Made by a program: the position numbers and the translations under genes | Shown here: piece after piece, positions 1 through 60,200 of the stretch | Position numbering within the stretch: position 1 is the first letter of the stretch | Layout: each line of letters begins with the position of its first letter | Assembly (NCBI GenBank): GCA_964428315.1 | Contig: CAYRXT010000013.1 | Coordinates: forward strand, 1-62,513 | Length of the DNA stretch: 62,513 nucleotides | Source of the DNA: an uncultured Planctomycetales bacterium | GTDB lineage: Bacteria > Omnitrophota > Gorgyraeia > Zapsychrales > CAYRXT01 | Direction: 5' to 3' | Notes under the pieces: model-generated | The model's input: the letters and a program-made list of their open reading frames with translations, nothing else | Databases searched by the model: none | Told to the model about the DNA's origin: nothing

Positions 1-220
1 CCGAATTCCGAATTTCAGACGGATCAGAAAAGTTTTTGTCATTGCGAGCGACCAAAGGGAGCGAAGCAATCTCATAAAGATTATTCTGACAAAGATTGCT
101 TCGGCGCTCCTTGCCGTCGCTTCTCGCAAAGACGGAGAGGGTGTACGGTCTAAGGATTCGATATTCAGGATTGGGAATTTATTCGGGATTTGGGATTTGG
201 CATTGGGAATTTTGAAATCC
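1..220 (+). repeat. Palindromic interspersed repeat (PR element), copy 1, truncated by window edge
   Basis: Matches 1681-1900 almost base for base. It contains the hairpin GTCATTGCGAGCGACCAAAGGGAGCGAAGCAATC...GATTGCTTCGGCGCTCCTTGCCGTCGCTTCTCGC. The ends are inverted: CCGAATTCCGAAT vs ATTCGGGATTTGGGATTCGG. Confidence 0.9.
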
Positions 221-36200: not shown

Positions 36201-39200
36201 GGGAGTGGCGCAACGGCCCGAGAAATACAGGCCTTTACAGAGCCCCCGACTTACCGACACATGTTGTTCCGGAACAATCGGCTCCGCAAACATTCGCTCT
36301 TTCGCAGAATTATCCCAATCCGTTTAGTCTTTCCACAACCATCCGGTATAACGTTGCCGAGCCGGGCCCAGTGCGGCTGGTGGTTTATAACATTAACGGG
36401 CGGAAGGTTCGGACATTGGTCGATGAGTTACAGGAAGCCGGCACGAAGAGCGTGGCGTGGGACGGCCGGGACGACGCCGGGAACGAGGTCGCGGCCGGCG
36501 TTTACCTGTATGTCCTGAAGGTCGACGGCAGGGTTGTCGGCAAAAAGAAGCTGCTCCTCCTCGCGTGCGGGGAGGGGGGGGATGATGAGGATCCTCTGAC
36601 GCAAGGCCGGGAGAAACCGGCGGCGCGGTTTGCGTCTCCCGGAGGGATCGCGTGCATAGGCGTCTCGGTGCGGATGATGCTGTTGCGGCTGGCAAACAGC
36701 GGCAGGCTTAACGTTTTTGACGCGAAGCCGGCTAATGGGGAAAATGGGGGCCGTCCCTATTTATCCCATTTATCAGGGCCGGTTGCTCTGAACAAAAAGA
36801 GAACGTCAGCTTTTAAGGAGTTGGATGAAATCTTCGGCAGGGATCCCGGCGCCTTTGAGGATAGCCTGGAAGGTTCCCGTTTTAATGATTTTCGATCCGT
36901 GGAGAGGGATGACGCATCTGCGCCGGAGGTCGCTTTTATGCCGCATGACGACATGAGAGCCTTTTTGACGGAGGATAATGAAGCCGGCCCTGCCCAGGCA
37001 CGCGACGATCTGTTTACCGGAAACCCGCGGCAGGCGGGTCATACGGAGACCTCGACGTCTTCCACCATGACATCGATGTCTGCGGACGGGACAGGAAGCC
37101 CGTCCATGCGAAGAGATTCGACATACAGCGCTATGGCTTCCTTGATATTGGCCAGGCCTTCGGCAACGGTCTCGCCCTGGCTTGCGCAGCCGGACAGCGA
37201 GGGAACAAAGAGGCTGTATCCGCCTTCAGGATCTTTCTCGATAACAACCTTGAATCGTTTGACCATTTTTTCACCTCCGTTAAAAAATATACTACGATTG
37301 TCCGGGGAAGTCAATTCATACACTTCTCAGACACGGATAGTCCATTCGGGAAACAGGGGCCGCCCCTGTATAGCTTGCGACGCGTCGGAGAAAGACCTGT
37401 CGCCGGAGGCGTTGGCGGGGTACGTGGATTATTTCGGCGGGATCGGGGAATTCACGCCCGTCGAGGATATCTATGGACGGCTGGAGGTCCGGGAGGCCCT
37501 GTCCGCCGCCGGCCTCTTCGCCGGCGACGCGCGGGCGCGCCTGCGGGGGAAGGGCGTGCGGTTCGTGCGTCCGCCTTCAAGCTGGAACCTGAAGTGGGAA
37601 TACGGCGCGGCGGTCTATGTCGAAAATGAAAACGACATTTACATCATCCTTCCGGAGGGTACGTCCTCGCTGGTCATCGCCCACGAGATCTGGGCCGCCC
37701 TTAATCTTGATTCCGGACACGAAGACAATCCCTTTGTCATCAAAGAGCCGGGATTCCGGAAGACGCTGGTCTCGATGCTCCCGTGGGTGAAACCCGATCC
37801 CCTTGACGGCGTTGAGATCGTCAACGACTACACGCGCAAACTCATAGAAGAGAAAAGGGACTACGGCCGGGCGCTCGGGGTCTCGCTCCCGGCCTACGAA
37901 CGGTCGCAGGACGAAAAGGTCCTGCGCCTCCTCATCCCCGCGCTGGTCTTGACCAACAATATCTCGGAGGCCGAAAGCCTCTACCTGCGCGCTGCGCCCG
38001 AGGACCGGGCCGAGGTCATCGATAACCTGGCCCGCGCCCTTGTCTGGTCAGTGACCGACTACAAGAGGGGATATGAGTTAATGGCCCTTTTCCTCGCGAC
38101 GGGGGATTCGCCCGCGTCTTACATGCGTTTCATGGGCCGATTTATGAAGACGTTTTTTATCCGGTATTTCAACGGGCCGGCTCACGACGTCCATTTGGAG
38201 AATCTCGCGGCGTTTAAGGCGGGCCGGCTCCCCGCGGCGCTGACACGGGACTACGGTCCGGTCGGATCCTTCCGGGAGGGCTTCGACCCCGGCGTCTTTC
38301 CGGAGATGACGTTCGCCGTGCCCGCGGACATCGGTTCCATGAACGCGCTGGGCAGGGCCCTGTTCGCGGCGGTCCGGGACGACGCCCGGCCTCGCAAGTT
38401 CGTACGGATCGACGGCCAGGAGGGGCTGGAACTCTCCATCCTGGAAGACGACCGGGTCCATGCCGAGATGTACGGCCGCATCCACGCCTTCCTGGAAGAC
38501 GCCCGGTATCACGGTACTATCGTACAGGGCAAACACCTGCCGACGGCCCTGAACGGCAGCCGCAGATTCCTCGGCAACGATTTCCGGGGCGAGGACCTGG
38601 CCGCCTATTTCAACAAGGCGGCCGCAGACACGGTGCCCCTCGATGCGTATGAGAGGTTCCTGCTGGATTATCTTCTGAATGAAAGAGGCGTCCTGGCCCT
38701 GAACGATGACGGCGCGTACGAAAGCCGCAAGAAGTATTTCCTCGCCACGGTCTGCATGGACGGGTTTTACAAGGATTACATGAAGGAGCATCTCTTCGGC
38801 CATGAACTGCGGCATTACATGCTTTACATGTCTCCCTCTTACGAAAAAGACCTGTGGGCTGTCTGGAAAGAGGACCTCAAGGAGGAAGAAAGGGAGGTGG
38901 TGGAAGACTTCTTCCACGGCCGGGGCTACGACAAGGGTAACGGGTGGCTGATGGTCAAGGAGCTCCCGGCGTGGATCTACCATCCGGATTTTATGAAGGC
39001 GACCAAGATCCGGCCTCAGGTGGTCGAAAAACTCAAGGAGAGGGAGGACGCCGCCTTCAGGGAGATCTTTCTTAGCCGGCATGGCTCCAGCGGCGAAGAG
39101 ATGTTTGGCGAGGCCACCCGGCCGCGCGCGCGCGAAGGTTCGGCTCTCCCCGTCATCGCCGGGCCGAAGCACTGCGTCGTCAATGCGGTCTTCATGGCGG

Positions 39201-42200
39201 TGAACCTGATCCGGTCGGCGCTGTCCCGGGGAAATAGTGAAAACGGGGACGGAACCTGTTTATCGAAATCCTCCAACTTCAGCGCCGCCGAGATGGACGA
39301 GGTAGCGCGGATGCTGGAGGAGGGTGACAAGGAGGCGGCGGCGCGCGCCTGGAAGTACGCTTCGATGATGCGGGCGCTGGAGCATCAGACAGGCGGCAAG
39401 GTGATCGAGCTGGAAGGGAACCTTATTTCCTGCAATCCGCAATTAAGCACGCCCGGCGGAGGGGCCTTTGACGTGAAGAAGATCCTCGCGGTCCTGGAGG
39501 TGAGCCCGGATTACACTATTACCAGCCGCACATATCAGGATGTTCATAACCTGATCGCCGCGCTTTATGTGATTAAAAGGCTCGAGTATTATGACAAAAC
39601 AAAAGACAAACTTGCGCATGCCCGGGATGTTATCGGCTCGTGGGATGAGCTCTGGGCGCCGCTGATTGCCGGGCGGATATATTCGCCGGCGCAAGTCGCT
39701 GACATCCTGCGCGCGACCGCGCGTTTATCCCGGCTTAGGGGCGTGCCCGGCAGCGAAGAGGCGAGAAGTGTGCTGTTCCGGGCCCTGCAAACGGCGCCGA
39801 CGGCAGAGGATTCAGTGGAGACGGTGCGACGGTTATTCACGGGATGGGATTTGAAGCGTAAACTTCAACTGGCCTTGTCGTCGATGCGGGAGGTTGCGCG
39901 CGAACTGGAATTGTTCAGTATGGATTTATGGGGACCTGAACGCAAGGTGAAAGCGGTTTTGTTTTCGGCCTGGGCTTTCAGTCATAGATCGTCGCGGTCT
40001 CTGCTTTTTTCGTGGGATCTCGAGGAGAAGCTCGGGCTTGAAAATGACAGCCAATACCTGCTCCTGTCACATATTTTCGCTGCGCCGCTGGCCTCGGAGA
40101 CTTCTTTGCGCCAGATATTTGAGGGAGCCCGGGGCAAAGACGCGGCCGAAGAAATCCTGGGACAGGGATGTGTTCTCGCTATGCCTTATGCGGGAATCGT
40201 TCTTTGCCGTTTCCTTGGGGCCTTTGATATTGTCATCAAACTGATGCGGCTTCAGACGCACTGCTGTTTGATGGTTATGAAGGATGGATATGCTTTTATT
40301 TTTGACAGCGGTTATTCGACGGCCAGCCGGTCTTTCCGGTTAGAGGACTATACGGAAAGGGACGGTGAAACTTACCATTTTAAAGAGGCGTTTTTCCGCG
40401 ACGTCTGTCCCGAGGGGTGGAAACACACACATTTTAAATGGTTTAAATTGTACGATATTTACGGGTTCCCCGGATTTATACAAAACAATATAGATCTCAA
40501 TATATATAAAACAAAAACAGAAACAGAAACAAAAACAAAAACAGGTGACAGTCACCAAACAGGTGACAGTCACCGTCCGGGGACAGGGATGACCGGGCCC
40601 GGCGAGGCCACCCGGCCGCGCGCGCGCGAAGGTTCGGCTCTCCCCGTCATCGCCGGGCCGAAGCACTGCGTCGTCAATGCGGTCTTCATGGCGGTGAACC
40701 TGATCCGGTCGGCGCTGTCCCGGGGAAATAGTGAAAACGGGGACGGAACCTGTTTATCAGTTTTGAACAGCCGCCTTCTCTTTGGTGATGCGTTGCGAAA
40801 TCCATTTCTGCGGGAGTTCTCCGGGGGAGAGGCCGGCCTTGCAGGCCAGCTTGTCAAGGATCCTGATCTGCCGGGGCTTAAGGTCGAGGACGATGTGTTT
40901 GGGGCGGGGGGGCCGCGCATTTCTTGCGGGCCTGATGTCCTCCGGGAAATCCGTTATGCTGTGGGTATCCCAGAAGGCCCGCTCTTCACGGACAGATTTG
41001 AATTCCGGGGTTTTTCCGGTCTTTTTCATCCCTCTTTATATTTTGTGGATTCTATAACGACCTTTTCTGATGACAGCCAAATGACCGGTCAGATCTTGTC
41101 GAGCCACTCGGGAAAGGAAGTCGCGGAGGAGTTCGTTGATTTCGCTGATGGTAAGCAGATGGACCCTCAGGAGAATAATCCCGCAATTAGACGGGGGAGG
41201 GTACCTGAGGATATTGCTAAAATCGGTATCTCTGGTAATGAGTATACAGGAATCACGTTGAATCCTTTCGAAAATTTCTTCATCCGTGGACTGCGGATTG
41301 ATATCCCGGATATCAACAGCATCATGCCCCATAGTTTCGCACGTACTTTTAATGGACCGGGGGCAATCGGCATCGATCAGAAATCTCATAGTTTAGGAAG
41401 GTTGTTTGATAAGTTCTTGTTCGTCAGTGAGCATTGCGGCGAACAGAAGGCAGGCATGAATATCTTCCATAGTAATGGGAGCGTATTCTCTAACAACCTC
41501 TTCGAAGGGCATCCCGCAGGCAAGAGCTTCGAGAACTACATGAACAGGTATGCGTGTGGCTTTAATACATGGCCGACCATGCTGAACCGCGGGGTCGGTA
41601 GTGATGTGTTTCTCAATAAGTCTTTTATTGACCATTTTTATCCTCTTTTAATGATTCCAAATATAACATGGAATAATAATATTGTCAATTTAGAAGGGAT
41701 TTTTGATAGAAATAAAGGTGACTGTCACCGTAACCGTAAACGGCCCTACTCTCTCCTCACCGTGCCGGAGGTGTATGGGGATAATGGAGAAGAGGGAGAC
41801 GGGGGAGAAGGGGGCCGCGGGCCGCGTCCTCCGCGGCAGGGTTCTTCTGAATCTTCATTAACGCGGCCCGCGGCCCTTGACAGCTTCACGGCCGTGTGGA
41901 ACGGGGACGCATACGGGTATGAAACAGGCAGCAGCGTCCGGCTGTACGGGGACATGGAAGACCATCTGAAACAGGCCGGGCTCCTGCTGAGCGAAAGCGG
42001 CCGCGACCCGCCGGAGCGGATCACCGTTATCATCACCGCCGACGCCGAACTCTTGGGCGTTGACCCGCGGACCGGCCGGACCTACGTCATGGCCAGCCGG
42101 ACCGATCCCGACGCACGTTTCCTCATCTTCATCCACCCCTACTATTTCACCCTGCGGGAAAACATAGACGGGGAACTCGCAAGCAACCGTAACGAGTCCC

Positions 42201-45200
42201 TGAGAGGTATCTACGACGCGTACACACGTGTCTTTGAGGTACGGTTTTTGCCCCGTGCCGACTTCGCCCGTCTCCTGATGATTGAGATGCCGGCGCACGA
42301 GTTCCTGCATTTCGCGGGGATGGACGAGGCGCAGGCGCTGGAGGCCACCTTCGTCTTGAGGGAGAGACTGGTGGAGGAGAGAAGGGCGGAGGACGTCCAA
42401 TGGTATATCCGGGCGGTTAAACAACTCCAGCGGCCTGATACGCGTGAGGAGGGCCGCGTTGCTTTAATGCGCATGAGGCATAAATCTGTTGTGCCCTCCC
42501 TCCGTCTCAAAGCGGATTCGGTCCTCTGCGCGATCCCGTTCTCTCCGGACTATCCTGTGGGCTTGCGCAGGGCCGTTGTTCAGGTTGTAGAAGACGGATT
42601 GACGCGCCGGCCTTATGCCGGACGTTACGGAGAAAGAGATATCCGGCTTCTTGAGAAATTGTCCTTCGCGGAGGCGGCCGGATGGAAAGTCCGCAAAGCG
42701 GCTCTGGAAACACTAATAGGCATAGCCCGCAAACAAAACCTGGTGGTCCCCGGGCACAGAAGGACAGCCCTGGAGGGCCTGGAGGAATTCATCATATCCA
42801 TCGATGACGATAAGTTGCGACATCTTGTTTTGAAAGCGATCACCATGAATGCTTTCCGTCCATCGCTTCCGGAAAACATAAACCGAGAGAATCTTGAGAG
42901 TCTGTTGCGTCTCTATGAAGCCCTTGGGGGGTCCCTCAAGATGATTGTCCTTGAACAGCTCAAGACGGTTTCGTCTCATGTGCGTTATAACGAAGTTAAA
43001 GAGGCCCTGTTCCGGTATTTTGCCGGTCAGTTGGACGCGCGTTCTGTTCCGGACGGCGGCATGGAGACCGTCTGCGCCCTGCTCGCGCGGACGATGAGCG
43101 TCTCGTCGACAATGCTCGCGCTCGGCGACAGCCTGATCAGCGCGGACAACCAGTATTATTACGCCGTGGACCTCGGGTTCGTTCCCGGTGAAGTCCGGAC
43201 CGTTTATGAGGACGGTTTTATCCTGGCCGCGGAGCCGGACGCGGGACTGCGGCTCGGGCTGGCCTTTGCCGTGGCCAAATACCTTAACGACCACGGCAAG
43301 GAAGTCTGTCCGTCCAACATCAGTGCCTTAGGAGGGTTTGTGGCCGGTCTGAGGAAGGAATTCTCGGAAAGAGAATACATTTCACCTGAGACAGATTATA
43401 TGCTGAATATTTACGACCGTTTGGATCGCGAAGTCTGTTTTAGGGATATAGCCGGGACTTGGGCCGGCCTTTCGGCCGGGTTCATCGGGGATTCCGTGAA
43501 GATAAAGCTTGCCAGCACGGGCGGCGGGCGGGATTTGCGCAGATCCCTGAATGAGGCCGGGCGGAAGGCCCGGGAGGGAAAAATCTTTGCGGGAGTGTTT
43601 GGCCACGGTTCCGGAGGGAAAGCAGGGGCCGTGAAGAGTCTGTTTGGCAGGCTGTTTCTGGACCCGACATGGCGGGAGGCCATTGAGATCAATCAAGATG
43701 TGATCCCGGCCGGCCGGATTATGAAAGGACTGATGAGCGGAACAGCCGCTGATTCGAATAAGAAGGTGCACCTGTCGGCATGTTTTGCCGAAGACAACGC
43801 CGTGGCCTGTGCCTGGTGGATTGCCCGGCGTTTCGATGTGAGTGCGTACAGGCCTGTTGACGCCCTGATAAGCGTAACCAGTTTGAGGCAGAAGGCGCTG
43901 CCCGGTATCTATGAGGAGGCCGCGCGCTCTTTTATCGAGGATAACCTCAAGGACGGCCGAGTAAAGAATCCTAAAGGACAGTGGACGGGGCGGGATTATT
44001 TCGAGCTTGAAAAACGGCTGATAAGGCAAAGACGCTATAAGCAGAAACCGTCAATCATCATCGGGCTGACGCCCCCCCAGCGGGAGGAGCTGATAAAGAT
44101 CGAGGAGACATTGATCGACCGAGGGACGCCCAGGCCCGCGCCCCGCGTGAAGCAGTTCGGCGCCTACCCGGAGACCATCCCCGACGGGTTCATGAAGATC
44201 TCTGGTAATGTGGACAAAGACGACAGGGACAAAGGGGCCAGTCCCCGAAAGGGGACTGGCCCCTTTGATGGCCCCTTCAAGGGGACTGCGCCCGTTGCGT
44301 CCCGGTTCACCGCCAGCATCGCCGGCTCCCATGCCCTTATCTTCAACTGGCTGGCGTCGGCGCTGGGCCGGGGAGGGGAAGCGGATGTCCCGGCGCGCGC
44401 GAAAGGCGCGAGCGCGGTCGAGGACCTTTACGTCGACGACAACGCGGCCGAAAACGGGGACGGGCTGAGCGCGCGGACGGCCTTCCTGACGGTCGGTGAG
44501 GCCACCGCCTTTATCGATTCTCTGCGGCAGGCCGGGGAAGCGCAGAGAGTGACGATCCATGTTGCGGCGGGTACCTACCGGGAGCAGGTCGTTCTCGGGG
44601 ACAACACGACCCTGCGGGGCGAAGGCCGGGACGCGACGGAAATTTATCTTCCGATCAAATGGGGCGCCATGGTGCGCGTCACGGGCGTTGACGTGCGGAT
44701 CGAGGATATCGAGATTGAGATTAAACCCGTTATGGGCGGCCCGGCGGGGCTCCATGTCGAAATGCCCATGGGTCTGAACTGCGAGGTCAAAAACAGCCGG
44801 ATCGTGGCGTATATGTCCTGTGGGACGGCGGTGGTTCTTTCGGGCAGTACCGGGCTGTTTGAAGGCAATGAGGTCATCGGCTTTGACTTCGGGCTTATCG
44901 TGAATGGCCATGGATGGCTGGTAAAGGACAACTATTTTGCAGGCTCGACGTTTGAGGAAATAAGGGTGTACGGCCAAACTCTGGTCCAAGACAACACGAT
45001 TGACGGGGAGATCGCCGTTTTCACGACGCCGCAGGGCACGCCGGCCCTGCTGAAGCGGATCGAAGCCGATCCCACCCTTTTCGGCATGGACAAGCTGACG
45101 GACAAGTTTTATTACAACGAGATTTTGCGGGGCAGGTGCGCACCCGATATGCCGGACGCCCTTTCTTCCGGGTATAACGCCGAGATCAAAGGTAACCTGC

Positions 45201-48200
45201 TCAATGGCTACCTTAACCTGGCCTCGGGAAACAATTATGTCCATCATAACGTCATTCGTAACGCAGGGAAAGCCGTGGACGTGGGCTGGTGGGCGTGGAC
45301 ATGCCACGGCAACAGGATCGAATCGAACCGGATCATCGACTGCGATGCCGGCATCCTCATCCACAAGGGCCGGGGCCACGTCGTCGAGAGGAACCTTATC
45401 GCGGTTTTCGATTACGGTGTCAATATTCGCAAAGAAAACATCGAAGGGCCGACCGTGCCCGGGGACGCGCAATTTGTGAACAACACCATCGTATCGACCG
45501 GAGAGGGCGGCCGTGGCGGGATCATCGTCTGGTCAAATGGCGGCGGCAACAGTGTCACGAACAATATCATCGTCATCCATGATCCGCAGACCGGGCGTTG
45601 TGTGTCTAACAATACAGGCAGGCCTTCGGATGTGAATGTGGCCTATAATGATCTGTACCGGATTGGCTTTTCAGACGAGCCGGATCCTTACCGTGATACT
45701 TACACAAACGAGGCCGGCAATATCTACGCCGACCCGCTGTTCACGGTGGGGAGCGGTTACCGTCTTGATGCGGCTTCGCCCTGTATAGATGCGGGCAACC
45801 CGGCGATGACCGATCCCGGGACTTTTTCCCGGGCGGATATGGGCTGCTACCCCTACAGGGTTCCGCGTGAGCCGTACAGCTTAGCCATCGCTTCCATAGG
45901 GGATCAAAGGGAACGCCGGCCGTTTTGGATCAGCTTGACCGCCATTGACAGCCTGGGCTTGCCTGTAACGGGCTTTACGGGCAGGGTGGATGTGACGGAT
46001 CTGACCGGCACCCTCAGGCCGCGGATGAGCGAACCGTTCATCGACGGCCGGCTACGCCAGCAGGTGGTTGTGGACAGTGCGGCCAGGCAGGACCGGATTA
46101 TCGTGGCTTTCTCCGGCGGTAACAAGACGTTTATGTCCGAACCATTTGACGTCTTGGATGTCTACGATTTATGCCATGTTTATCTGGACGGTTCTGCCGC
46201 GTCCGGCGGCGACGGGTCGCTGGCGCGGCCTTATGACAGATTCAACAATGCCATAGCAGGTGCGGCCAAACTGGCTCTTGACTATGAGTACAGGGAGGAG
46301 GTTACGATCCATGTGTTCCCGGGAAGGTACGAGATATCCGGTTCGCTCAATATCCCTCCGATGGTCAATCTTGTTTCCTTCAGCGGGGAAGGGGCGGGTA
46401 CCGGTGATGTGGAGATCGTTACGAGCGGCTTCCCGTCAACGGGACGGCACCGTGCAGTGGAAAAATACGGTACGGGCGTTGTTCGCGGTCTTGTTTTTCT
46501 TAACGGAGACAGCGAGAAGAACGTCATAGCGCTTGAGCTCGACGCGTACGGACGGGAGACCGGGGACAGGACGACCGTGGTGGAAGACTGCCTTTTCGAG
46601 GGGTTCACGGAAAGCATCCTAGCCTATCTTAAGACCGAAGGGGACATCCTGATACAGAGAAATACGATAAGATCAAGGTGGTTTGATATCACGTATATCG
46701 GATACTCGTCTGACGAGGGAGCTCTTGTCGTGAGAAGAAATATTCTCCAGGGTGCCCACGCCGGATTTTTATATGAAGGCCGTGACGAAGAGATCCCGCA
46801 GACGGAGGTCTTGATCCACAACAATACGTTTTACGGCGAGGACGGATGGCGGGGTATTAATATCTCCGATCCCATGCCGTATGCCACCAGGATCGAGAAT
46901 AATATCCTCTGCGGATGGGAGACTCCGGTGCGGGATCCTCACTTGGTCTCCGAGGGCGGCGTTAACTACAACCTGTTTTTCGACAACACGTACGATTATG
47001 CGGGCGGTGGGACCGGCAACATCACGGGTGATCCGTTATTTGTATATGAGAAAGGGAGCGATTTCCGTCTCATGCCGCTTTCGCCCTGTATCGACGCCGG
47101 CAATCCCGATCCGCAGTACAGAGACCCCGACGGGACGCGCAACGACATCGGCCGGCATGACTGCGCGTCGCGTTACGGCTATTTCGTCGTCGATTCTATA
47201 GCGGCACAGGCGGCGGGCCGGGACTTCCGGGTCAACATCACGGCCTACAAGAGAGGGGACGCAGGGGTCTGGAAAGATTTCAACGGGCAGGCGCGGATCC
47301 TGGACCGCACCGGTGACCTTACCTGTCTTCAGCCTGTATATTTCGAGGACGGAAGATGGACGGGGACGGTCCGCGTCGAGGAACACCTGGTCGACAACAT
47401 GCTTCGGGTGGAATCTCAGGAGGGCGTGCTGGGGTATTCTAACCTTTTTAGCGTCTACGATCCGCAATGGATGACGGTTTACGTCGACACAAACGGAACA
47501 GGAGGCGCGAGCGGCCGCGCCGACGATCCGTTTTCTTCGGTCATCGAGGCCGTGTCAGCGGCCAGCACGCGGGCCGAAGAATATCATATTCCCGTCACCG
47601 TCCGCGTGAGGGGCGGCAGGTACGATATCGTTCCTCCGGCGGGAGAGTTTTACGGGTGCGTTCTCGCGGACGGCGTCAGCCTGGAAGGCGATCCTGAGGA
47701 CAGGCCCGTGTTTGTTGCCCGGCACTCGCCTTCTCAACATCTGTTGATCAGTGCGTATCTGCTGAAGAAGGGGGCGGGCAACATCAAGGACATCATTCTC
47801 TTTAACGGGGCTGACCAGGCCAATTCTTCCGGCATCAGGACGGACAGCCGCGCCCGAACGGTGATACGTAACGTTCGGGTGGAAGACTTTGCGTCGCCTA
47901 TCAGCGCGTGGCGTTTCGCGAAGGTGACGGTGGACCACTGCCTGATCGCACGCTCTCCGGTAACGGCGGGCCTGACGGCTGGCAGCGGGGACACCCTCGT
48001 CGTTCGCAACACCACCTTCGCGGACACCCGGGGCGCGGTATGCTGGCGCAGCGCCGGGGTTTACAGCGAGTTCCTTAATAATATTGTCGTGAACCGCCAG
48101 GAAGACATCTTTGTCGATCCTTCCGGTGACGCGCGGATTAGCTTCAACTGTACATATCACCTGGATTCGGGGACTGGTTACACCGGAGGGACAGGGAACA

Positions 48201-51200
48201 TCGTCCTTGATCCAGCCCTGGATGCGGAGTGGCGCCTGACCGCGGATTCGCCGTGGCAGTGCAGGCAGGGATGGCATGCCATGGGCGATACCGCCGCATA
48301 CTGGGGCTGTTATCCCTTTGTCATGACTGAGACCGAACCCGCCGTGTCTGTGCGGATTCCCGAGGAAGTTATCCTTGAGCAGAACCACCCGAACCCCTTC
48401 AGGCCGGACACGCGCATCCGTTTCGGCCTGCCCGTAGCCGGGCGGGTGACCCTGGAGATCTTCAACCTGCTGGGGCAGGAAGTCAGGACGCTCGTGGCCG
48501 GCGGGGACTATCCGGCGGGTTACCATGCCGTGACGTGGGACGGCCGCGATAACAACGGCGCGGCGGTCAGCGCGGGGATTTATTTCGCGCGCCTGCGGTT
48601 CAGGGACAAGGTGTTGACCTCCAAGATGATGATGACGCGCCTCGAGCGGGACAACGACAAAGACGACAAAGACAAAGGGGCCAGTCCCCGAAAGGGGACT
48701 GGCCCCTTTGATGGCCCCTTCAAGGGGACTGCGCCCGTTGCGTCCCGGTTCACCGCCAGCATCGCCGGCTCCCATGCCCTTATCTTCAACTGGCTGGCGT
48801 CGGCGCTGGGCCGGGGAGGGGAAGCGGATGTCCCGGCGCGCGCGAAAGGCGCGAGCGCTAGGGAAGACCTTTACACCGATGCCGACGCGGCAGGTTTCCT
48901 GGAGCTGCTTTCCGCCGGAAATTTCTACACGACGGAAGAGGCCGCCGAAATCATACGTGCCACCGACAGCCTTTCAAGCGCGCACGGCGCGCCCGATCCC
49001 GATTCTCTGAACGGGCGGATCAGGGAAGAATTGAAGACGGCGCGCACGGCCGAGGACTCTCTAAAAGCCGTATGGCAGGCTATTGAGTCGCAAGGGCTGT
49101 CCGAAAAACTCCGTTTCCAGAACGACGAAGAATATCTGCTGCTGTCGCGGGTGTTCGCCGCGCCGCTGGTCCGGGAGGAACCCTTGAAGGGTATGTTTTC
49201 CGGGCGTCCGGATGACGGGATGTTTGGGCGGCTGCTGACAGCCCGAATGCGTTCCGGAATGGCAATCAACATAGGATTAGAGGAGGCGATCCAGGGCGCC
49301 AAGCTGTCGTTTAGTGAAGGCTGTGTCTTAAATATGTTTTACGTGGCGGTCACGCTGCCGCGCCTTACCAAGGGGACAGGCCTTTATGTCCGCGTCATGG
49401 AACTGCCCGGGCATGTCTGCTTTATGCTTATGAAGGGAAAACGCGCGTTCATCTTTGACACTTCTGGGGGAATCAGCGAAGGACCGTTCCGTCTCGGACG
49501 CTATACGCAAAAGGAAGGTTCCACGTATTATTTCAACGCGGCGTTTTTTGAGGAGATTTTTCCCGAAGAATGGAAACCTCACCGAAAAGATTACACGCGA
49601 TTCCGGCTGTATGACGTCGGGAGCTTTCCCCTCTTTGGCATGAATAATATCGGCGCGATATACGACTTGATCGGTGAAAAACACCTCGCCAGGGAATATT
49701 GGGAAGGGATTATTTCAAAAGACCTCGGCCAGGTCCTTGCCCTGGAAAATCTGGGTTCCGTTTGTTTTGAGTCGGCGGCGTACGCCAAGGCCGCTGAACA
49801 CTGGTCACAGGCCCTGTCTTTGGATCCCCGGAGCGGACGGATCCGTAATAACCTGAAGAGCGCACTGCTGGGGCAGGCCTCCCGGTCCCTCCAGGAAGGA
49901 AACCATTCGCAGGCGATTGAAGCCTTTTGGCGGGTACTGGAAATCGAGCCAGGGGATTTTCAGGCCGGTATCGGATTGTCCCTGGCTTATCTTGGGCAGT
50001 ACCGGGGCGTTATCCTGTTTGTGTGTTACGGCGTTTACCTTGCGGCCGCGCTGTACTTCATTGTCTTCTGGCTCGCCCTTGCGTTCAGGCGGGCGCTCCG
50101 CGCCCTGCGCGGACTCCGGGGGAAAGGGCAAGTTGCCGATAAAGAGGCAAAAACCGGCCATCCCAACGAAGCCCAAGACATATATAACGAATGGCAGGCT
50201 CAATACGGTAATAAAGCGGATGTCATCATTTCATCTTTTGGAGAATTGGTTCTTGCCAAAGAAGGCGCCAAGCGATTTATTGAGAGAGTTATTGAGATTT
50301 TTGCGAAAGATATCAATCCCCAAGCAGAGGTGAAAGATACAATTGAGAAAGTGAAAGATACTCGTTTTAGAGAATTTATTTGGTGGCTTCTTTCGATCGT
50401 TTCCTACGGGGAACCATGGAATATGTTTATTTCTTGTTTTGCAAACGAAGATCTTTTGCGCGTCGTTATTAAACATCGTGTTCCTGCAAAGAAATTTATA
50501 GATGCCTCAGATATCTATGACAAGGCAGGGCAATCAGGCGGGAAGGCTTACCATAAAGAGTATAGAGCATTGAGAGAGAAAAGGGGAGAAGAGCCTATAC
50601 CGAAGGTCTTTGTTGGTTTTCATTCGGATTTTGAAGCTATCAATTGGAATGCAAATCTTATCAGAGGAATCGAGGAACCTTCAGGGATCAAAGGGATTAA
50701 AGGATATAAGTTGACAATTATTAAAGCAATGGTTAAAGGTGATCTTCAATATTTGTTTATCAAAACAAAGGACCAAAAATTGATTAAGGATCTTTGGGAC
50801 ATTTTTAATTTGGATGAGTGGACGAAGACAGAATTATTAAAAAACAATTTTGATAAGTTTTTGCCCGTCTATTTGCTGCAGGTTAAAGAGGTAAAGAATG
50901 TTGATAGGAAAGGGATTTTTATTTATGAATACCAGCCTTTAGTAAGGGTTCCAAGGGATGCCAGTCAAGACTTGAAGGATTTTATGGGTGCTGTGGAGAA
51001 GTACGTTTCATTTGTTGCTAGTCATTATCCTGAAAAGTTAATCAGGGATAATGGTAAGATTTCTGAAATTCTTTTCCCCACCACGGGACATTTCATGATA
51101 AATGAAGGAATACTTTTTCAGCCATCCCTGTTCTTGAACAGGTATGGGTATTGGTTGAAGGATAGAGGTTATAGATTGGCAGTGCTTGATGAGCCGATTA

Positions 51201-54200
51201 AGTATACGCATCTGGATCAGCGAATTGGTGCCGTCCATTTTGTGTGGCAGAAAGAAAGATCTGTTAGACACTCAAGATGTTTTATCATCCGTAAATTAAT
51301 TAAAAATGGTAAAGATACCACCCATAGGTTGAATGTCTTTGGCGTCATGGCGGCGGTTGGGCAGGTAGCAATAGCGATAGTTTTCTTGGCGATTGCCGCG
51401 TGGGAGTTGCCGCGCATAGGGAAATTAATACTGAGAAACAGCGGGAGGTCCAAAAAGATAGATGGGGAAAAAGTTGCGATATTGGCAATAGAAGACTACT
51501 CCCCTGGAAAGAAGGGGTCAAAAGAGAAAGAGCCAGATATCAAAATAGCCGCCGATATCCTTAAAAAGGCGGGAACCTACTCACAAAAGGAAAAAACAGC
51601 GCGATACGCTCCGAAGAACGTGGATTTTGCGGATATCGTTAAAATCATCAAAGAGAAATCCGTCACGATCCGCGGCATTCTTGAGGGCCGGGAAGGTATG
51701 TTACCGAAGGAAGAGAGGATCGTGCGGGTGCTCGTGAAGGCTCTGCGGGACGCGGGATGGGGTGGCAAGATCCGGGTTTCCGGTTCGAAAAGGCCCAGAT
51801 ACAAGGGGAGGACACAGCAGGAGGATAAAAGAATCGTGATCGTCCAGGAGGATTTTGATCTGGTGAGGAAATCGAACCTGTCGATAGGCACGACGCTTGG
51901 GGTGTTTGACGGCGGGGAATGTATAGGCGCCGTGTCTCTGTTGAATGGTCCGATAACGACTATGATGACAGCGGGGGAGGAAGGAATACGGCATTTCGCC
52001 TATGACGGTGAAGCGTTCATCAAGCGGCGGGAAATTCTTGATTTAAGTCTGCCGACCGACAAGAAATCGACAGTCGCCTTGGGGGGACGATACACTGAGT
52101 GGCATCCGTTATTTCAAAACTACTATAAGGATAACGGGAAAGGGATCCCGGGCAGTGACGGCAAACATTTAAAGACGCGATACGGAGGGATTGTGAGGAG
52201 AGACGGGCGTGTGTACAGCGCACTGGCCGCGAATATGTACAACGCTTTTTGCAACAATGGGTTTGTGAGCGACATTGTGAGCCTGGAAGAGGCGAAGATC
52301 TATGAGAGGTTCACCCGCGCGGCCAAAGGCCGGATGTTATTCATGACGGAATACGGTCGTGAAGCCCAGGAAGAAACTTTGGCAGGACAAACAGTGCAGG
52401 TGTATTTTGGCAACGGCGATGCGGTCAACAGGTTAGAAAAATATTCGGAAGAGAAAAAAGATGGGCATGATAAAGCCCCGTTTGAGGCGCGGGCAGGTCC
52501 GCGGGCCGGATATCAGGGATGGCGTCTGGTCTTAAGAGTCCCGGGCGTTCTGCTGTCCCGGCTCAGGTGGAAGAAGAGTTTAAAGACATTCGTTAAAAGG
52601 CATATGCCGGCGGAGGAATGGAGAGACGATGTGATAAGCGGGGTATTGGCTGTGGCGGAGGCCGCGAAGTGTGTGAGAATATTATACGTCGAGGGAGGAG
52701 AGGGCACGGGGAAGATGGATTCCGGAGGGGCGGAGATGCGGAGGATAGACGCGGAGACGGATGAAATGCTCGCCAAAAATCTGAAGCCGCATGTCAAGAT
52801 ATATTACTCGGAGGATGCCGGTATATTCCAGTCGTTTGAGAACGGAGAAGGTTTTCAAGGGCAAGGCAAGCATATCTGGTACTCCGGTGACGGACTGGAC
52901 GGATCCTCGCTGGTTAAAAGCAACTGCGGAGGGGGGACGATTGGGGCTTTCAGGAAATTCTATGCGGAATCTCCCATCGTCGGCAGGGATGGGAGGCATA
53001 TTGTCGGTTCGATGTTCGTGACCTACGGCGTCAAGGTCGCGTTGATCGTCAGGATCGGCAATAAGGTCTATGAATTTGAGTTAAGGGAAGAGGAATTTTA
53101 CAAGACAGGCCGGATCAGATTGCACCGGAAAAGGAAGGCGCGCGCGAAGGACAAACGCATCGCCGTGGGAGGATCACGCAAACAATGGCCCGAAGGACTG
53201 GAGAAATTTTTTGACAGGTGGTTTGAGGGAGGCGCGGTTCTCGGATACGCGGGCGCGCTAGTCACGGATATCTACGGGATGATAAAGTTTATCCAGGACG
53301 GAGGGAATGGGCTGTTTTCCTATCCCGCCAACAAATTGAGGGTGCGCTCCGAACTGCAGGCGATAGCGGGTATCATAGAGGCGGCGGGAGGGAGAAGTAT
53401 CACCTATGTCCATAAAGACGGGGAATCGGCACAAGACATTCAAAGTCTGCTTGATCTGCCACTGACTCATGAGCCGGACAGCCTTCAACAGCAGAAGGCG
53501 CCTTCTGCGTTTGGGGACGAAAACAGCATAAATGAATTGGAAAGGGCCCTGTCCGGTTCCGGGCGTTATGGCGGGGGATCTGCCGTTCTTTTTGGGACAA
53601 CAATACCGCCGACTGTCATATTAGCCGTGGCATTAATTGCTGTATGGCTGTTGGCAAACAGCATTCTCCGGTCGATGCGAAAAGACTTGGCAGGCGGGGC
53701 CTCTGAGAAAAAGTCCGGTTCCAAAGGGGTTATCGCGGTCATCATTATCGTTTTGATATTGGGATTCTTTCTGTGTGTGAAGACAGACGCCAAGGGCGCT
53801 TCTTTGCGTACCCGGCCGGAGCGTCAAACGGAGAGTCTTGCGGAGCCGGACCGGACAAATCCCGCGGCCGGCAGCACGCGTTTGTATTTAAATATCGGGT
53901 ATGTGGCCGGGATTATTATGATTGCGCTTATAATTTATTTGTATTTGGTTTTGGATGAGGAGGCTCGGGGAGGAGCGAAAATACTGATGGCGGGAATTCT
54001 CATGACCTATTATTTGCTGGGGATGCCCGGGACATCGCCCCAGTCGCGTCTTCCGCGCGGGCTGGATTACGGCGAACTGAACGGAATTTCGGCGGGAGAT
54101 CCTCTCGCGCGGGTCACAAGCCAACGGCGTTATTTGGGTATTCCCGATTCCATGGAGATCCAGAACGTGAGGCCCCTGCCCGGGCGCGGGCGCGCGTACT

Positions 54201-57200
54201 TCGAGGTCCGCATCAACGGACCCCCGGGAAGCCCTCCCCCGCCCAAAATCGCCATGATCATGGGCTGTCCCGCCAGGGATGCCTCCGCGCCTCTGACAAG
54301 GTTTAACGGCTGGTTCCCTGTTTTCCTGGTCCTCCTGATGGCCATCACGCTCATCTGGCCCAAGATGGTGAAGCGGTATTCCGGCAAAAGGACCAATGAT
54401 ATCCCCGTGTATATCTTCCGTTATTCCGAAGGGAACAATGCCTGGAAATTCCTTTGGCTTTACTTGGGCCTGACGATCTTCACGCTCGGGCTGTTCACCT
54501 GGTTCACGCCCGCCCAGAATGACGCGGGGATTCTTCTGCGGATGGTGCTGTTTTTCTTAAATTCCTGCCTGATGATCGAAGGGATCTTCCTCTTGCTTGC
54601 CAATGCCTCTCTGTCCCGAGTCAATCCGCTTAAAGTCATTCTGAATTTCTCTCCCGCTTTCGCGGCGCTGGTAGCCGTGCTCTTCCAGCTCGATGAAGCC
54701 GTCCTGACCGGGTCGTTTGCCGTGCTGTTCTTTGTTCAGTTTGTCTATTTTGCGTCACTGTTTGGACCAATTTTTGTCATGGGTGTTTCAGGAATCCGTT
54801 ATGCGCGTTCCGTGGCCGCGGCGCTTGTATTGAGCGCTCTATTGTTTTTCGGCGTGAGCGCCTTTTTCCTGGAGCGGCCGCAACCCGCGGGCGGCGCAGA
54901 CAGTCCTTTAGTCCGGGAGCAGGTGGAAAATTCGCCTGGGGCGGAGGCGTTCAAAAAGCGTATGGCGGACATTATCCTCTCCAGGCTGGGCGCGCCCGGC
55001 GCACCGTTCAGGGACTGGAAACGCTGGCCTTTCGTGGAGGAATTCTGGGAAGAGGCGGGCATGACGCCCGAAGAGGCCGCGCGGGCCGCCGGGTTGTTCC
55101 ATGAAGAACTCAAAGGCATCCTTTTCTGGTGCGAGGCGCGTTTCGCGCAAGAATATATGAAGACGCAGAGAAGTCTGCCGGGCGGAGGATTTACGTTTAA
55201 GCCTGAATGGGAGTACGACGTGGTTGTACTGACGGTGCTCAGGCTGAAAGGAGAGTCCTGGGAGGCGGTGTGGGCGGTCATCGACAGACTGACCGGCCTT
55301 TGGGTGGAGGAGACAATCGAGGACCATAAGGAAGAGGGACTGTTCAGGAAAACCGGCTGCGGGTCTTCTACCACTCACATTGGCTTCGGGTCAAAGAATT
55401 CTGAGTATACGGTTCTGAATTCAAAAGCCGCATTGGCTGCCGCGATTCTGATTGTTTTCGTGTTTTCAAGTTGTCTTGCGTACATCATCTACCGTTTGAA
55501 TCGCCATGCCCGCGAACGACGCGGCATTCCTGACGCCCGAGAAGGGAGGCCGGTGCCGGGTGTCCTCCCGTATCAGGACGAGGTGCCCCTTGCCATTGAA
55601 CGGGCCGGCCATGATGAGGTTATGAAACGGGTCAAAGAAATAGTCGGTTCAACGGCATCGCCGGAACTGCCCTTAATCCGCTTTGAACCGGTCACCGTGA
55701 AGGATCTCCTCGGCATGATTCGACAAGAATTCTTCAGCCGGGCACCGTCAGAAAAAACCCTGAGCACCTGGATCGAGAAAGACTCGGCCGTGGTGAAACC
55801 GCACATGGGCCCGATGGTTCTCCGGGCCGATTTTCAGACTCTTTTAAATAAGAGATATATTATCGGGATCATCCGGCCCGGATCCGGGTGCCGTTATGTC
55901 GCGTGCTCGGAGTTCGGAAAAGAAAAGAGGCTCGCGCGTCTTCTGATGCCCGGAGAGAGGGCGCCGGTTTACATTGAGCAATCAAGCTTGCAAGCCCTTG
56001 AAGGAAAGACTCTCCGGCTCCTGGGCCGCGCCGGGATGCATACCTTGGACAAGGATGCCGTCGTCCGGGAGGAAGATGTCCACCTCCTGATCAAGGAGGG
56101 CCGGGTCGTCCGGGGGATCATGGAGGGCGAAGATGTCCTCATCACAAAATTCGCCCTTTCCCGAAACCGGAAATACCGGGACGCCCAGTGGCGGTGGCGG
56201 CTCAAGGAGATCACGGACGGACTGCCCGGGGACCCGGCTGTCGCTTTTGCGGCCTTCGAGAAGGCCCTGGAAGGACTCGGCGAATCCCAGTGGGAGAAAA
56301 ACGGGGACGTTTATGCTATCGACGCCCTCCTGGACCTGGCCGCGCTGGTGAAGGAGACGGCCCTTGAGGTCGTAACACACGGGTGTCCCTTTGCCACGGC
56401 CGGGCTTATCGCGGCGGCCCTGCTCCTGCCCGTCCAGTCGAAGACCTTGCGTCGCCGGCGGCTTTTAAACGGCCTGGCCTGCTCCGAAGATTTCGATCCC
56501 GCTGCCGTCGTCCAGAGGGTTCGCCAGGTCCGGAAGACCATGGAGGATTTTGACCTGCGCAACCTTAACAAGGACCGCGGATACGTCCAGAAACACCTGA
56601 AGATGGTCATCGACATGTTCCTCCACAGGCCCGAGGTCGCGCTCCTTTTCATGGCGGCGGAGCTCCACGACCTGCGCGACTGTGCCGGACCGGATAAGGC
56701 CCTGGAGGAAAATGAAAGCCATGTTCTGATGCTGCGGGCCGTGGCCGAGGCACTGTTCATGAAGAAGATCATGCGCCGGATCGAGGGTCTGACGGTGTTG
56801 CCGGAAACAATCAAGGAAATAGACGGTGAAGTCCGAGGCTTATACGGCATGGGCCTGGAAGCCATCAGGAGACAGCGGCATAGGATCGAGCTGTATATCC
56901 GGAACGCCCTGAAAAAAGAGGGGATGACTTCGTTTCGTGTTTCCGGACGGGAAAAGACTTTGCACTCGATCAAGAGGAAGATGGATTGCAGAAAGCCGAT
57001 TAATGAGATGTACGATCTCATAGCGTTTCGTGTGGTTGTAGAGGATTGGGAGACAGCCGAACGGATCACAAGTGTTTTACAGAAAGACAAGGCCTTGGGG
57101 GATGGCGTCGTAAATCTGGAGGTTAGGTCTAAGACCAGCGTGCCGACGCGATCAGGTTTTCAGGCCATTTACCTTGTTTTTGGCATCCCGCTTCCGGAGA

Positions 57201-60200
57201 GCGTCAGCAGGGTGACGGGGAGAGCGGGTTTTCTGCCCTTTGAGGTGCAGATCCAGACGCGAGACGCTTTTGAATTGGGTGAATTCGGCAAGGCCAACCA
57301 CGCGGGTTACGAATTTGATCTGCGGGGCTGGGGTTACCTTCCGCCCAGGACGATCGCGCGGATGAAAGACGACGACCTAGTACGCAACCTCGAGAGCTAT
57401 TTCGAAGCGAACGGCCTGAGAGGCAAGAACTTCGTGCGTTTCCGCGTGCGTTTCCGCGAGAAGGAGTCCGGAAAACGAACGTACACGGTCATTGCCGAGG
57501 TGCCGGAGATACAAAATGGAGACTTGCGAGGGTACAGCACGTTCCTGGACGCGCAGGCCGAGCCGGAGATCGACAAGTTCGGTTGTTACAAAACGGGCCG
57601 CCTGTATATGTTTGACGGATCAGAGAAAGATATCGATGCCGCCTACGCGAAGCTCCTGAGCGGGGACCTTGTCGAGGTGGATTTTGCCGATAAACCGCCT
57701 GAGAAGCTGGTGAAAAAGAAGATAATGTTCTGGCAAAAGGAGAAGGATAAGGATTGCGGTAAGCATGAGTCCAACCCTCCTATGTGGGTGCCCGTGGCCC
57801 CTGTCCAGTCGCCCCGCACAAAGATGCTGGTTTATTTGCTCGGAAAGTGGGATCCCGAAAGCTTGGAACACCTCCTGGGCCGCGAGGACAAGGGTTATTA
57901 TATCCAGATTAGCATAAATGCTCTGCGAGACAAAAGGCGCCTGAAGATCGTGACGGACAAAACGAAAGCCTGTGAAGAGGAGAAAGAACTCCTGGACGCT
58001 AGGACGATCCCCTGGCCTGATCCGAAAGAGCTGGACACGGTCCTCCTGCCCCTGATCCTCTGGGTCGCCCAAAGAGGCAAAGCGGCCCTTGAGGAATTGA
58101 AAATCTTGGCCGGTGATGACGAGTTTGGGGCACAGGAGAGCGCGCTTACTGACAAATACAAAGAGAAGGGTGAGCACTTGCAGACCGTTATTACGGCCCG
58201 GATGCTCACAAAAGTTCTGAAGGAGGAGTACGGGCTGACGGAAATTCAGGATAGAAATCAAAAATGGAAAGAGATCCGGGAGCTTTTGCAAGAGTGGGGC
58301 CTGTTCTTAAAAAAGGAGGAAGATGCCTGGAAAGTTGACGCGGATAAAACAAAAAGGGAGTGGAAAAGAAGAAAAGAGATTCTCGATAAAAAGCCGGTCC
58401 TGGGGGTGGTTGATCTCCTCGGGGCAACCGATCCCGAGACCCGGGAAAACGTTGACATTTTGCAGACCCTGGCGGAAAGGCTCGGGTTCAAGTCCATGGA
58501 AAACGACAGGGGTCTGGCAGAGATCCTAGTCGCTGCCGTGACGGTGGACGATGTTCAGGACCGGCTGATGGAGTTGATCAAAGAGGAAAAAGGATACAGA
58601 CGCCGGTTGAAGGAGAAGATGCAGGTTTCGCTTTGGGCCTTCCCCGGACCGCTTGCCGCGGCCTTGATGCTGCCGGGCGTTCTGACGGTTTGGTTAAAGT
58701 TAAATCTGAAGGGGCCGGTCCCTTATGGGGACGGCTGGGCAAAAGAGAATCATCCGCGCCGGGGCAGTCGTAAGACGACCACCCTCTTTCCGTGGCTGGT
58801 GGAGGGTCGCCGGCCCGGCGCGGATTTATCTTTAACCCCAGCCCCAGGTGACTGTCACCGCTGTGGTGACTGTCACCTGGGGCTTTTGCACAGCCTCGGC
58901 TGGGGCGATGTTTTCAATTATCTGAGGGGGTTGCTTCGCCGAAGGGGGCTTCGCCGCCCCCGGCATACTTCGTCACGGGGGTTCGCGATGACAGCGGGCT
59001 TGGGCGGCAAGGCCGCGGCGGCGGTCATTGTCGCGCTGGTCCTTTCCCGCCTGGGTGTTCCTCTGGCTTGGACCCTGCCTCTTGTGCTGGCTGCCCTGTC
59101 TTTCCAGGCGGGAGGCGGCGGTCAGCGGGACGCGGACACTCCGGAAAAGGTGATCCGGAAACTGGCAGGTCAGTTTGCATATACCCAGGATCAAGTGCAC
59201 GAGCTTGTCCGAAGATTCCGGGAGCGGGGCCTGGCCGCCGCGCGGGAGGGAGAAAAGACAGGCGAGCTGTTCAAAACGGTGGTTATCCCGGTTGAGCGGG
59301 TGCCCGGGACCCTGTACCACGAGGAGGCGTATATCTTCGCCCGGGCCATGGGGCTCGACGCGCGTATCGTGGAGTTGTCTCCGGCTTCCGGCCGGGATTT
59401 CGAAGGGTACGGGGTCATGATCCGCGAAAAAGAAAAAGTCTGGCTGATCGACCTGAGCAATGTCCGGGCGCCCCTGGGAGGGCCGTTCGACGCGGTCGTT
59501 GATAAGGAGAAAGGCGAGGATATCCTCCTTAAAAAAGAAGAAAAGGTTCACGTCCTGGCGCGGGTCCTGGACACGGACGCTGTTCTCGCCCTGAGATGCC
59601 GCCTGACCGGCGACCTCTTGCGTGATGAAAGATATTTCAAGAGCGCCGCCGCGCTTTATGAACAGGGCCTGGAGTACCTGCCGGGAAACACTACGCTCCT
59701 TTTGCGGCTGGGCATGGTCTATACGCTTTGGGCCCGGCGGGAGGCCGCGCGCGCCCAAAAAACAACCACGTGGCGCTATGAGGCCGGGAAGCGTTACGAC
59801 AAAGCCCTTCACTATTACCTGGAGGCGCTGGCCTTACAGAAAGACGACAGGTCTTTGTTAAACACGATTGGCGGCGTGCACAAGTCCCTCGGGGACATCG
59901 CGAAAAACCGCGAGGGAGCTGTCTTCCGCTACAACATGGCGCTCTTACTTTACAAGAGGGCCCTGGATCTGACCGGTGAGGATGACAACGCCGAAAAGAG
60001 CATCTTCAGTTTCAACGCCGGGGTTGTCTCCGAGCTGACCGGACAGTTTGAAACCGCGGCCGGGTTTTACAGGGAGGCTGCGGAGTTAGACCCGGCCAAT
60101 CCGGCCCCCCGCATCAAGCTGGGGCATGTGTATTTTGAAATGAAAGACTGGGACCAGGCCGCCGCGAGTTATGAAAAGGTGCTGGAAGAGTTCGGATGGA

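Follow-up and report, generated by a model that had tools for sequence, protein, structure and literature searches.

We report here a pair of identical 188-nucleotide (nt) direct repeats, R, which each carry a perfect hairpin, are translated in frame, and bracket a 4.3-kb cassette inside one giant open reading frame (ORF) of an uncultured Planctomycetales bacterium (GTDB lineage Omnitrophota; Gorgyraeia; Zapsychrales; CAYRXT01). The DNA analyzed, called the window below, is the whole 62,513-nt stretch of contig CAYRXT010000013.1 from GenBank assembly GCA_964428315.1. We consider it somewhat probable that R serves as a translated linker between the modules of a giant, modular gene for a membrane-anchored surface protein, that its hairpin is a fossil terminator, and that the two copies owe their identity to recent recombination.

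Giant bacterial genes of tens of thousands of codons have been recognized only recently. The locus gives a concrete hint at their origin, as an internalized C-terminal sorting domain followed by a translated terminator-like hairpin is what the capture of a whole gene would leave. The identical linkers also point to ongoing recombination within a giant gene, and they mark a surface-exposed cassette whose loss or exchange would leave the frame intact.

The reading frame and the repeat pair

The sequence is present in two microbial-mat metagenome runs, X1 and X2 (Logan contigs and unitigs). Segments of the window range in G+C content from 0.44 to 0.63, yet the X1 depth is uniform at 27-28x. The coding periodicity is unbroken across the window, with the pattern GC1 > GC2 < GC3 (G+C at the three codon positions) throughout, and the other five reading frames contain 5-71 stops per 1000 codons. 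The window sequence is real and comes from one genome. The ORF and the repeats within it are as follows.

2 to 62464, + strand: single continuous ORF with no stop codon from nt 2 to 62461 and the stop at 62462-62464; it contains both repeats.
44228 to 44415, + strand: repeat copy R1, exact 188-nt core (62 codons), encoding ...DKGASPRKGTGPFDGPFKGTAPVASRFTASIAGSHALIFNWLASALGRGGEADVPARAKGASA; a 188-nt unitig of its own in X1.
48671 to 48858, + strand: repeat copy R2, identical to R1.
44213 to 44448, + strand: extended homology, copy 1, which pairs with 48656 to 48891.
48656 to 48891, + strand: extended homology, copy 2.

The ORF runs past the left edge of the window, with its 5' end outside, so that its length of at least 20,820 codons is a lower bound. 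As the whole window is one stop-free ORF, the copies of R are translated linkers and not present-day intergenic DNA. The initial annotation had likened them to an intergenic region, composed of a terminator and a 5' leader, that was duplicated to either side of a gene and is read through. The absence of in-frame stop codons from nt 2 to 62461 and the continuous coding periodicity rule out an intergenic region today, and the leader part is unsupported, since R contains no in-frame ATG, GTG or TTG.

The repeat itself was described correctly: the segments at 44228-44415 and 48671-48858 are offset by 4443 nt and agree exactly over 188 nt. The spacing equals 3 x 1481, and both copies are read in frame. 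Around the core, the homology extends to a unit of 236 nt with 95% identity, in which 13 of 15 upstream positions and about 23 of 33 downstream positions (~70%) match; nothing matches beyond. There are no differences in the 62 core codons, and the next 12 codons contain four synonymous and four non-synonymous differences. At the rate of this flank, the core should have about 20 synonymous differences. Thus, the core was recently homogenized or copied.

The extended unit is free of stops in three of the six frames. No Pfam match was found in R, and a structure prediction of the linker in its context was useless (pLDDT, the predicted local distance difference test, 31.7). When the hairpin is taken away, the remaining 148 nt fold no better than shuffled sequences (z = +0.88), and an RNA structure spanning the whole repeat was rejected on this basis.

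Of two protein-level candidates, the first was rejected and the second is unsupported. A pair of transmembrane segments leading out of and back into the membrane around an extracellular cassette is contradicted by the hydropathy maximum (KD19) of 1.13 and by the position of both copies in a transmembrane-free stretch. A signal peptide or 5' leader of a cassette gene does not agree with the missing in-frame start, the long n-region, the weak hydrophobicity, and the lack of a Pfam match. As its hydrophobic patch is weak, R is predicted not to span the membrane, and it makes no convincing signal peptide. The Kyte-Doolittle scan of the ORF gave 90 windows of at least 1.5, clustered at nt 1-17,750 and 50,000-62,000; these transmembrane counts are a hydropathy estimate and not the output of a topology predictor. 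The roughly 10,700 codons between (nt 17,750-50,000) are essentially without predicted transmembrane segments and are filled with extracytoplasmic-type domains, and both copies of R lie there. Otherwise R is ordinary, an intragenic low-copy repeat as expected in modular genes.

The hairpin

Each copy of R begins with the same hairpin.

44230 to 44267, no strand assigned: hairpin 1, whose perfect stem of 17 bp closes on a GAAA loop (+ strand).
48673 to 48710, no strand assigned: hairpin 2, of the same sequence as hairpin 1; its minus strand continues into TCTTTGTCGT and satisfies the terminator scan.

The stem had been given as 16 bp long with a GAAA loop. The hairpin and the loop were confirmed, and the stem is one bp longer, 17 bp. 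Its arms, CAAAGGGGCCAGTCCCC and GGGGACTGGCCCCTTTG, form 12 G-C pairs and include a 13-bp G+C core. The peptide KGASPRKGTGPF was correctly assigned to the hairpin, and the longer translated stretch reads DKGASPRKGTGPF. A calculation of the folding energy, proposed as a check, found the hairpin to be exceptionally stable (-23.7 kcal/mol as DNA, z = -9.5); the 236-nt unit as RNA gave -123.9 kcal/mol (z = -4.1). The 36-mer of the hairpin occurs exactly twice in the window, against zero expected, and when the ORF was codon-shuffled 20 times, perfect stems reached 8-10 bp at most, compared with the 17 bp observed.

The description as terminator-like is right as far as the stable G+C-rich stem-loop is concerned, but the sense strand has no U-tract and no stop codon stands ahead of the hairpin. 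The tail on the sense strand is ATGGCCCC after the stem, or TTTGATGG after the 13-bp G+C core. The terminator scan requires a T-rich tail by a 5-of-8 rule, and the sense strand falls below it. Only the minus strand of copy 2 passed, with the tail TCTTTGTCGT; the minus strand of copy 1 failed. The hairpin is therefore no consensus sense-strand terminator. Scanned strand by strand over the whole window, sites with a hairpin plus T-rich tail show no general excess on either strand. There is no Rfam family matching the repeat, and by inspection no slippery heptamer for a -1 frameshift stands before the hairpin with the right spacing.

Two further observations concern the hairpin. On the minus strand, a sigma-70-like match at 48950-48977 (TTGAAA-16-TATGAT, 10/12) faces the hairpin of copy 2 (48673-48710, minus strand), and transcription from such a promoter would produce a hypothetical antisense RNA, about 270 nt long, across R2; chance alone makes promoter-like matches common here (14 against 8.5 expected). 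The second-best hairpin of the window, at 17356-17380, has an 11-bp stem (AATTGTGGCCG GGG CGGCCACAATT, z = -4.7) and lies in a segment coding for predicted transmembrane helices.

The cassette and its sorting domain

Between the repeats lies a cassette with the following parts.

44416 to 48670, + strand: bracketed cassette of three right-handed beta-helix units, with an Ig-like segment after each, and a terminal sorting domain.
About 44429 to 45715, 45716 to 47014, and 47015 to 48300, + strand: beta-helix units 1, 2, and 3.
About 48314 to 48640, + strand: sorting domain of the type IX secretion system (T9SS) type (FlgD_ig / CHU_C), at the end of the cassette, before R2.

Unit 1 has a NosD match and unit 3 a Beta_helix match; units 2 and 3 are homologous, with an identity of 29%. 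The sorting domain before R2 matched FlgD_ig (5e-10) and CHU_C (0.003), and the other two copies of such a domain in the ORF match Por_Secre_tail and CHU_C. The content proposed for the cassette, a triple beta-helix plus a sorting domain, was thus borne out by NosD, Beta_helix, the homology of units 2 and 3, and FlgD_ig / CHU_C.

The noteworthy point of the locus is the geometry at the end of the sorting domain. The domain stands at the very C-terminus in all 26 homologues recovered. Fifteen of these end opposite the Arg codon at nt 48638-48640, and all end within about nine residues of it. Hairpin 2 begins at 48673, 32 nt past that codon. A distance of about 30 nt is the usual spacing from a stop codon to a terminator, and an A-tract and the start of a T-tract flanking the stem, together with a GNRA loop, are typical of terminators. 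The placement of hairpin 2, 32 nt behind the end of the homologues, is therefore that of a terminator following a fossil stop codon, and copy 2 occupies the place of the 3' untranslated region that a stand-alone T9SS-substrate gene would have. In this ORF about 4,600 codons continue past the sorting domain, so the domain is internal. It appears that a stand-alone gene for a T9SS substrate joined the giant ORF through loss of its stop codon, and that the terminator stem is now read as KGASPRKGTGPF. The idea of a terminator behind a gene that is now read through thus holds as history for copy 2, on the 32-nt geometry.

Recombination and read depth

The core of 188 identical bases is far above the minimum for RecA-dependent recombination. 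The initial annotation proposed that the repeats could mediate excision, duplication or exchange of the cassette; the identical core is indeed an ample substrate and the products would be in frame, but no variant was visible. The cassette and its flanks are held alike, by these two runs only, and the cassette depth equals that of the flanks (25.4 against 23.6 and 28 in X1; about 5.9 against 5-6.2 in X2). The search for structural variants therefore came out negative by depth: no deletion or duplication variant and no sizeable subpopulation was visible in the contigs of the two runs, a weak test that would miss rare variants. Its weakness lies in the word length: since the repeat exceeds a 31-mer, neither deletion nor duplication would yield any new 31-mer.

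The depth of the R unitig itself was 17.2 in X1, where about 50 would be expected for two copies, and 4.1 in X2, where about 11 would be expected. This is 0.65-0.75 times the single-copy depth, and the hairpin is missing from the X2 contigs. In X1, other two-copy repeats behaved normally (54.4 for a 132-nt tandem and 44.4 for a 158-nt linker, against 27). Poor sequencing of fragments with perfect palindromes is a known problem (PMC4057610). As the other two-copy repeats have about twice the single-copy depth and the hairpin is missing in X2, the low depth of R probably reflects the poor sequencing of its perfect palindrome. The depth of R is therefore uninformative about its copy number.

An identical core between diverged flanks, together with the other identical patches in the ORF described below, points to recent gene conversion or to a recent insertion of the cassette.

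Searches for relatives and further copies

The 30-mer of the hairpin had no match in public genome and metagenome contig collections, and no loci related to the protein were found. Searches with the cassette, the FBPase segment, and the profile of the neighboring paralogues against 5.8 billion proteins were empty or gave only matches to sorting and Ig-like domains. The linker peptide had no relative among 1.84 billion representatives, and no relatives were found in the plasmid collection. In the assembly graphs of X1 and X2, only the four expected flanks join R, even at an identity of 80% or more. As there are no further copies in the metagenome, R is no dispersed element.

Proposed history and alternative explanations

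In the account that we favor, the beta-helix and sorting-domain cassette would descend from a once independent gene, whose stop codon was lost and whose terminator hairpin was kept as an in-frame linker. The identity of the linkers would come from recent intragenic recombination, either by gene conversion between two older homologous linkers or by single-crossover insertion of a cassette carrying the same linker. The hairpin would no longer terminate the sense transcript, as it has no U-tract and would be unwound by translating ribosomes, and it would persist as a passenger. As a by-product, the cassette of 1481 codons could be deleted, duplicated or exchanged in frame by homologous recombination.

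Several points weigh against this account. Behind the other two internal sorting domains there are only modest hairpins at most. Copy 1 is preceded by a module of unknown type, and thus the fossil-terminator geometry is seen in copy 2 alone. No relatives of the gene, the linker or the neighboring module were found from which to reconstruct the history by comparison, and no RNA runs holding the sequence were found. The full identity over 188 nt, including synonymous sites, would also fit a function at the nucleotide level, and for a relic without function, the hairpin, with its flawless 17-bp stem and its GNRA loop, is unusually intact.

The last two points lead to the reading in which the hairpin is a functional nucleic-acid element under selection. 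It could be a terminator for antisense transcripts, shielding the transcription unit, which exceeds 62 kb, against convergent transcription. It could act on the sense strand as a pause, an attenuation site, an RNase processing site or a barrier to 3' exonucleases that splits the giant mRNA, or it could make the ribosome pause between domains. The perfect stem is far beyond chance, the GAAA tetraloop of GNRA type is on the sense strand, the identity of the copies includes synonymous sites, and the minus strand of copy 2 has a T-rich tail that passes the scan; in a second linker pair of the ORF (see below), an A-rich tract plus palindromes likewise read on the minus strand as a hairpin followed by a long T-rich run. 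Published work leaves the cutting of giant transcripts open. However, only two copies exist against many more module boundaries in the ORF, hairpin-plus-T sites are unenriched on either strand, copy 1 fails on the minus strand, the sense strand lacks a U-tract, and the rest of the repeat is unstructured and without an Rfam match. We regard a selected function as unlikely.

A wider form of such a function would make the giant ORF a "stop-less polycistron" of captured genes and spacers, in which the hairpin linkers still terminate, pause or cut the transcript of more than 62 kb. The signals of the former units would then retain some weak activity; they comprise the terminator hairpin, tracts that are A/T-rich and promoter-like, palindromes resembling operators, and in-frame ATGs preceded by Shine-Dalgarno-like sequences. 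We consider this a long shot. If it were true, module-sized products would arise, which would answer whether giant genes act as one molecule or many, and the identical linkers would double as portable recombination sites for the swapping of surface modules.

R could also be a small palindromic mobile element of the type of miniature inverted-repeat transposable elements (MITE), Rickettsia palindromic elements (RPE) or SPRITE, which was inserted twice in frame and survived because it is stop-free. In-frame palindromic insertions are known from the Rickettsia palindromic elements and the terminator-like SPRITE elements (PMC10969869), the extended unit is stop-free in three of six frames, and the 5' third of the ORF is rich in multi-copy nested palindromic linkers. 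The lack of further copies in the metagenome makes a mobile element unlikely. There are only two copies, the 30-mer of the hairpin is absent from the two public collections scanned, and in the source metagenome R is joined only by the four expected flanks (at 80% identity or more); the depth of its unitig is below the single-copy level and not above it. Moreover, R has no terminal inverted repeats and a palindrome at its 5' end only, and the homology fades into the flanks, with no target-site duplications at the ends. Taken together, we judge this origin to be quite improbable.

With A, B, and C as left flank, cassette, and right flank, the order A-R-B-R-C could finally be an artefact of assembly, in which the true chromosome reads A-R-C and the cassette plus one R forms a 4443-bp circle or belongs to another strain, or in which the repeat was misresolved. 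R (188 nt) exceeds the k-mer, which leaves the graph ambiguous: the words that make up A-R-B-R-C are also those of A-R-C plus a circle. The R unitig is moreover of odd depth (X1, 17.2 against 24-28; X2, 4.1 against 5-6). However, this depth is better explained by the poor sequencing of palindromes (PMC4057610), the codon composition of the cassette matches that of the A flank, and the cassette is stop-free in one frame across all four junctions, which would make no sense for an independent circle. As its depth also equals that of the flanks in two independent samples, A-R-C with a 4443-bp circle is unlikely, and we consider an artefact of any of these kinds very improbable.

Other modules and repeats of the ORF

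The ORF contains four paralogous copies of one module, and one of them follows R2.

48857 to 49831, + strand: module after R2, with invariant Cys, His, and Asp and tetratricopeptide (TPR) repeats.
18248 to 19204, 19232 to 20185, and 39545 to 40510: the other three paralogues.

The paralogues are about 320 residues long and contain invariant Cys156, His186, and Asp201 (GEGC...LPGHxC...FxFD), followed by the TPR repeats. A profile search among 5.8 billion proteins found no homologues of this module outside the window. Its structure was predicted with a pLDDT of 55.7; Foldseek gave TPR matches only, as did a profile search of the PDB. The spacing of Cys, His, and Asp presumably recalls a transglutaminase-like cysteine protease, which was unconfirmed by profile or fold search.

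A second pair of identical linkers is found upstream of the cassette.

39107 to 39264, + strand: second linker pair, copy 1, 158 nt, 100% identical to 40601-40758.
40601 to 40758, + strand: second linker pair, copy 2, with an A-rich tract and, at 40544-40574, two GGTGACAGTCACC palindromes ahead of it.

The spacing is 1494 nt (3 x 498), the borders are razor-sharp, and the pair brackets a 1.3-kb module. The linker resembles R in its build, with a charged low-complexity tract, palindromes, a Pro/Gly-rich part, and a moderately hydrophobic helix; the similarity of the two peptides is weak (E = 0.06). The region ahead of copy 2 (40490-40600) contains ATATATATAAAACAAAAACAGAAACA..., the two GGTGACAGTCACC palindromes, and an in-frame ATG behind GGGGACAGGG. 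It looks like a promoter, operator, and ribosome-binding-site region that would now be translated.

Another patch of near identity (127 nt, 98%) is shared by 32363-32489 and 36452-36578, where it covers the 3' halves of the first two sorting domains. These two paralogues, each internal to the ORF, are only about 60% similar around the patch, which looks like a classic gene-conversion tract. An exact tandem duplication of 132 nt (44 codons) is found at 26366-26629.

The first 17,000 nt (1-17000) contain 6-8 copies of A/T-rich nested palindromic linkers of about 300 nt, all translated in frame (...RIPNFRRIRKVFVIASDQRERSNLIKIILTKIASALLAVASRKDGEG...). Examples are located at 1598-1905, 4853-5155, 8699-9005, 10106-10385, 13015-13067, and 16601-16829. 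Outer arms, CCGAATAAATGTCGAATCCCGAATTCCGAATTTC and GATTGGGAATTTATTCGGGATTTGGGATTCGG, surround an inner palindrome, and the RNA fold of 308 nt has an energy of -118 kcal/mol. They had no match in the plasmid collection. These linkers look like elements of the MITE or repetitive extragenic palindromic (REP) type that the giant ORF reads through.

At 20001-21334, the X1 depth is about 50, twice that of the neighbors, and contigs diverge into unrelated sequence at 20158, 20787, 20808, and 21243. The region also has internal similarity to 41849-42370. The double depth and the diverging contigs suggest that similar TPR-rich sequence occurs elsewhere in the metagenome or genome.

The domains of the ORF include Sigma70 r2/r4, TPR, BNR, fn3, CARDB, Peptidase_S8, FG-GAP, NosD, FBPase, RelA_SpoT, and the three sorting-type domains. 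The cytoplasmic-type domains, namely Sigma70 r2/r4 (about 13750-14430), FBPase (about 52700-53540), and RelA_SpoT (about 56945-57313), share the ORF with secreted-type ones (S8, FG-GAP, BNR, fn3, and beta-helix). The embedded domains are very divergent; the FBPase segment is about 30% identical to its best matches. No SecA DEAD-like, HEAT, dockerin or C39 domains were found in the part of the ORF within the window, and the window contains no marker gene.

Comparison with known systems

The hairpin shares with intrinsic (Rho-independent) terminators a G+C-rich stem, a GNRA tetraloop, an A-tract and the start of a T-tract, and a position about 30 nt behind the ends of homologues. It differs in that it lies inside an ORF and is translated, that its sense tail is only TTTGATGG, and that a T-rich tail is found on the antisense strand of copy 2 only. 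The sites at the boundaries of integron cassettes (attC) are palindromic as well, but they are imperfect palindromes with extrahelical bases and GTTRRRY cores and lie between separate ORFs beside an integrase. An attC origin was rejected, since the stem of R is perfect, no GTTRRRY is present at its borders, no integrase domain is present in the window, and there is only one ORF.

In bacterial surface-protein genes, identical in-frame repeats (alpha C/Rib of group B streptococci) are deleted or expanded by recombination. These repeats are likewise identical, spaced by a multiple of three, and part of a surface-exposed protein; however, they are tandem copies of a module, whereas here two short linkers surround a unique 4.3-kb cassette and no length variant was observed. 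Rickettsia palindromic elements (Ogata et al. 2000, reviewed in PMC10969869) share with R the reading in frame of 100-200 nt of palindromic DNA. They are present in tens of dispersed copies in unrelated genes, whereas R has two copies in one gene and no terminal inverted repeats. These elements and the surface-protein repeats are the closest analogues of R, which lacks the features that define a mobile element and those that define a working terminator.

The ORF as a whole compares with the giant genes of Omnitrophota, which have many transmembrane regions, S8 and C39 peptidases, TPR repeats, and embedded enzymes, and for which the cutting of the giant transcript or product was left as an open question (10.1101/2023.11.21.568195; 10.64898/2026.06.07.730766). 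The two papers make no mention of hairpins, intergenic-like linkers, identical linker pairs, fusion or stop codons. The ORF differs from Archaeovorin-type giants (West-Roberts et al. 2023) in its three internal T9SS-type sorting domains and in the lack of SecA DEAD-like, HEAT, dockerin, and C39 domains in the window. It shares with them a length of tens of thousands of codons, many predicted transmembrane segments, common internal repeats, and the tiling of an S8 peptidase, TPR repeats, enzymes (FBPase and RelA/SpoT-like here), and adhesion-type folds. By its predicted architecture, the ORF is a further case of this known class of giant multi-domain bacterial genes.

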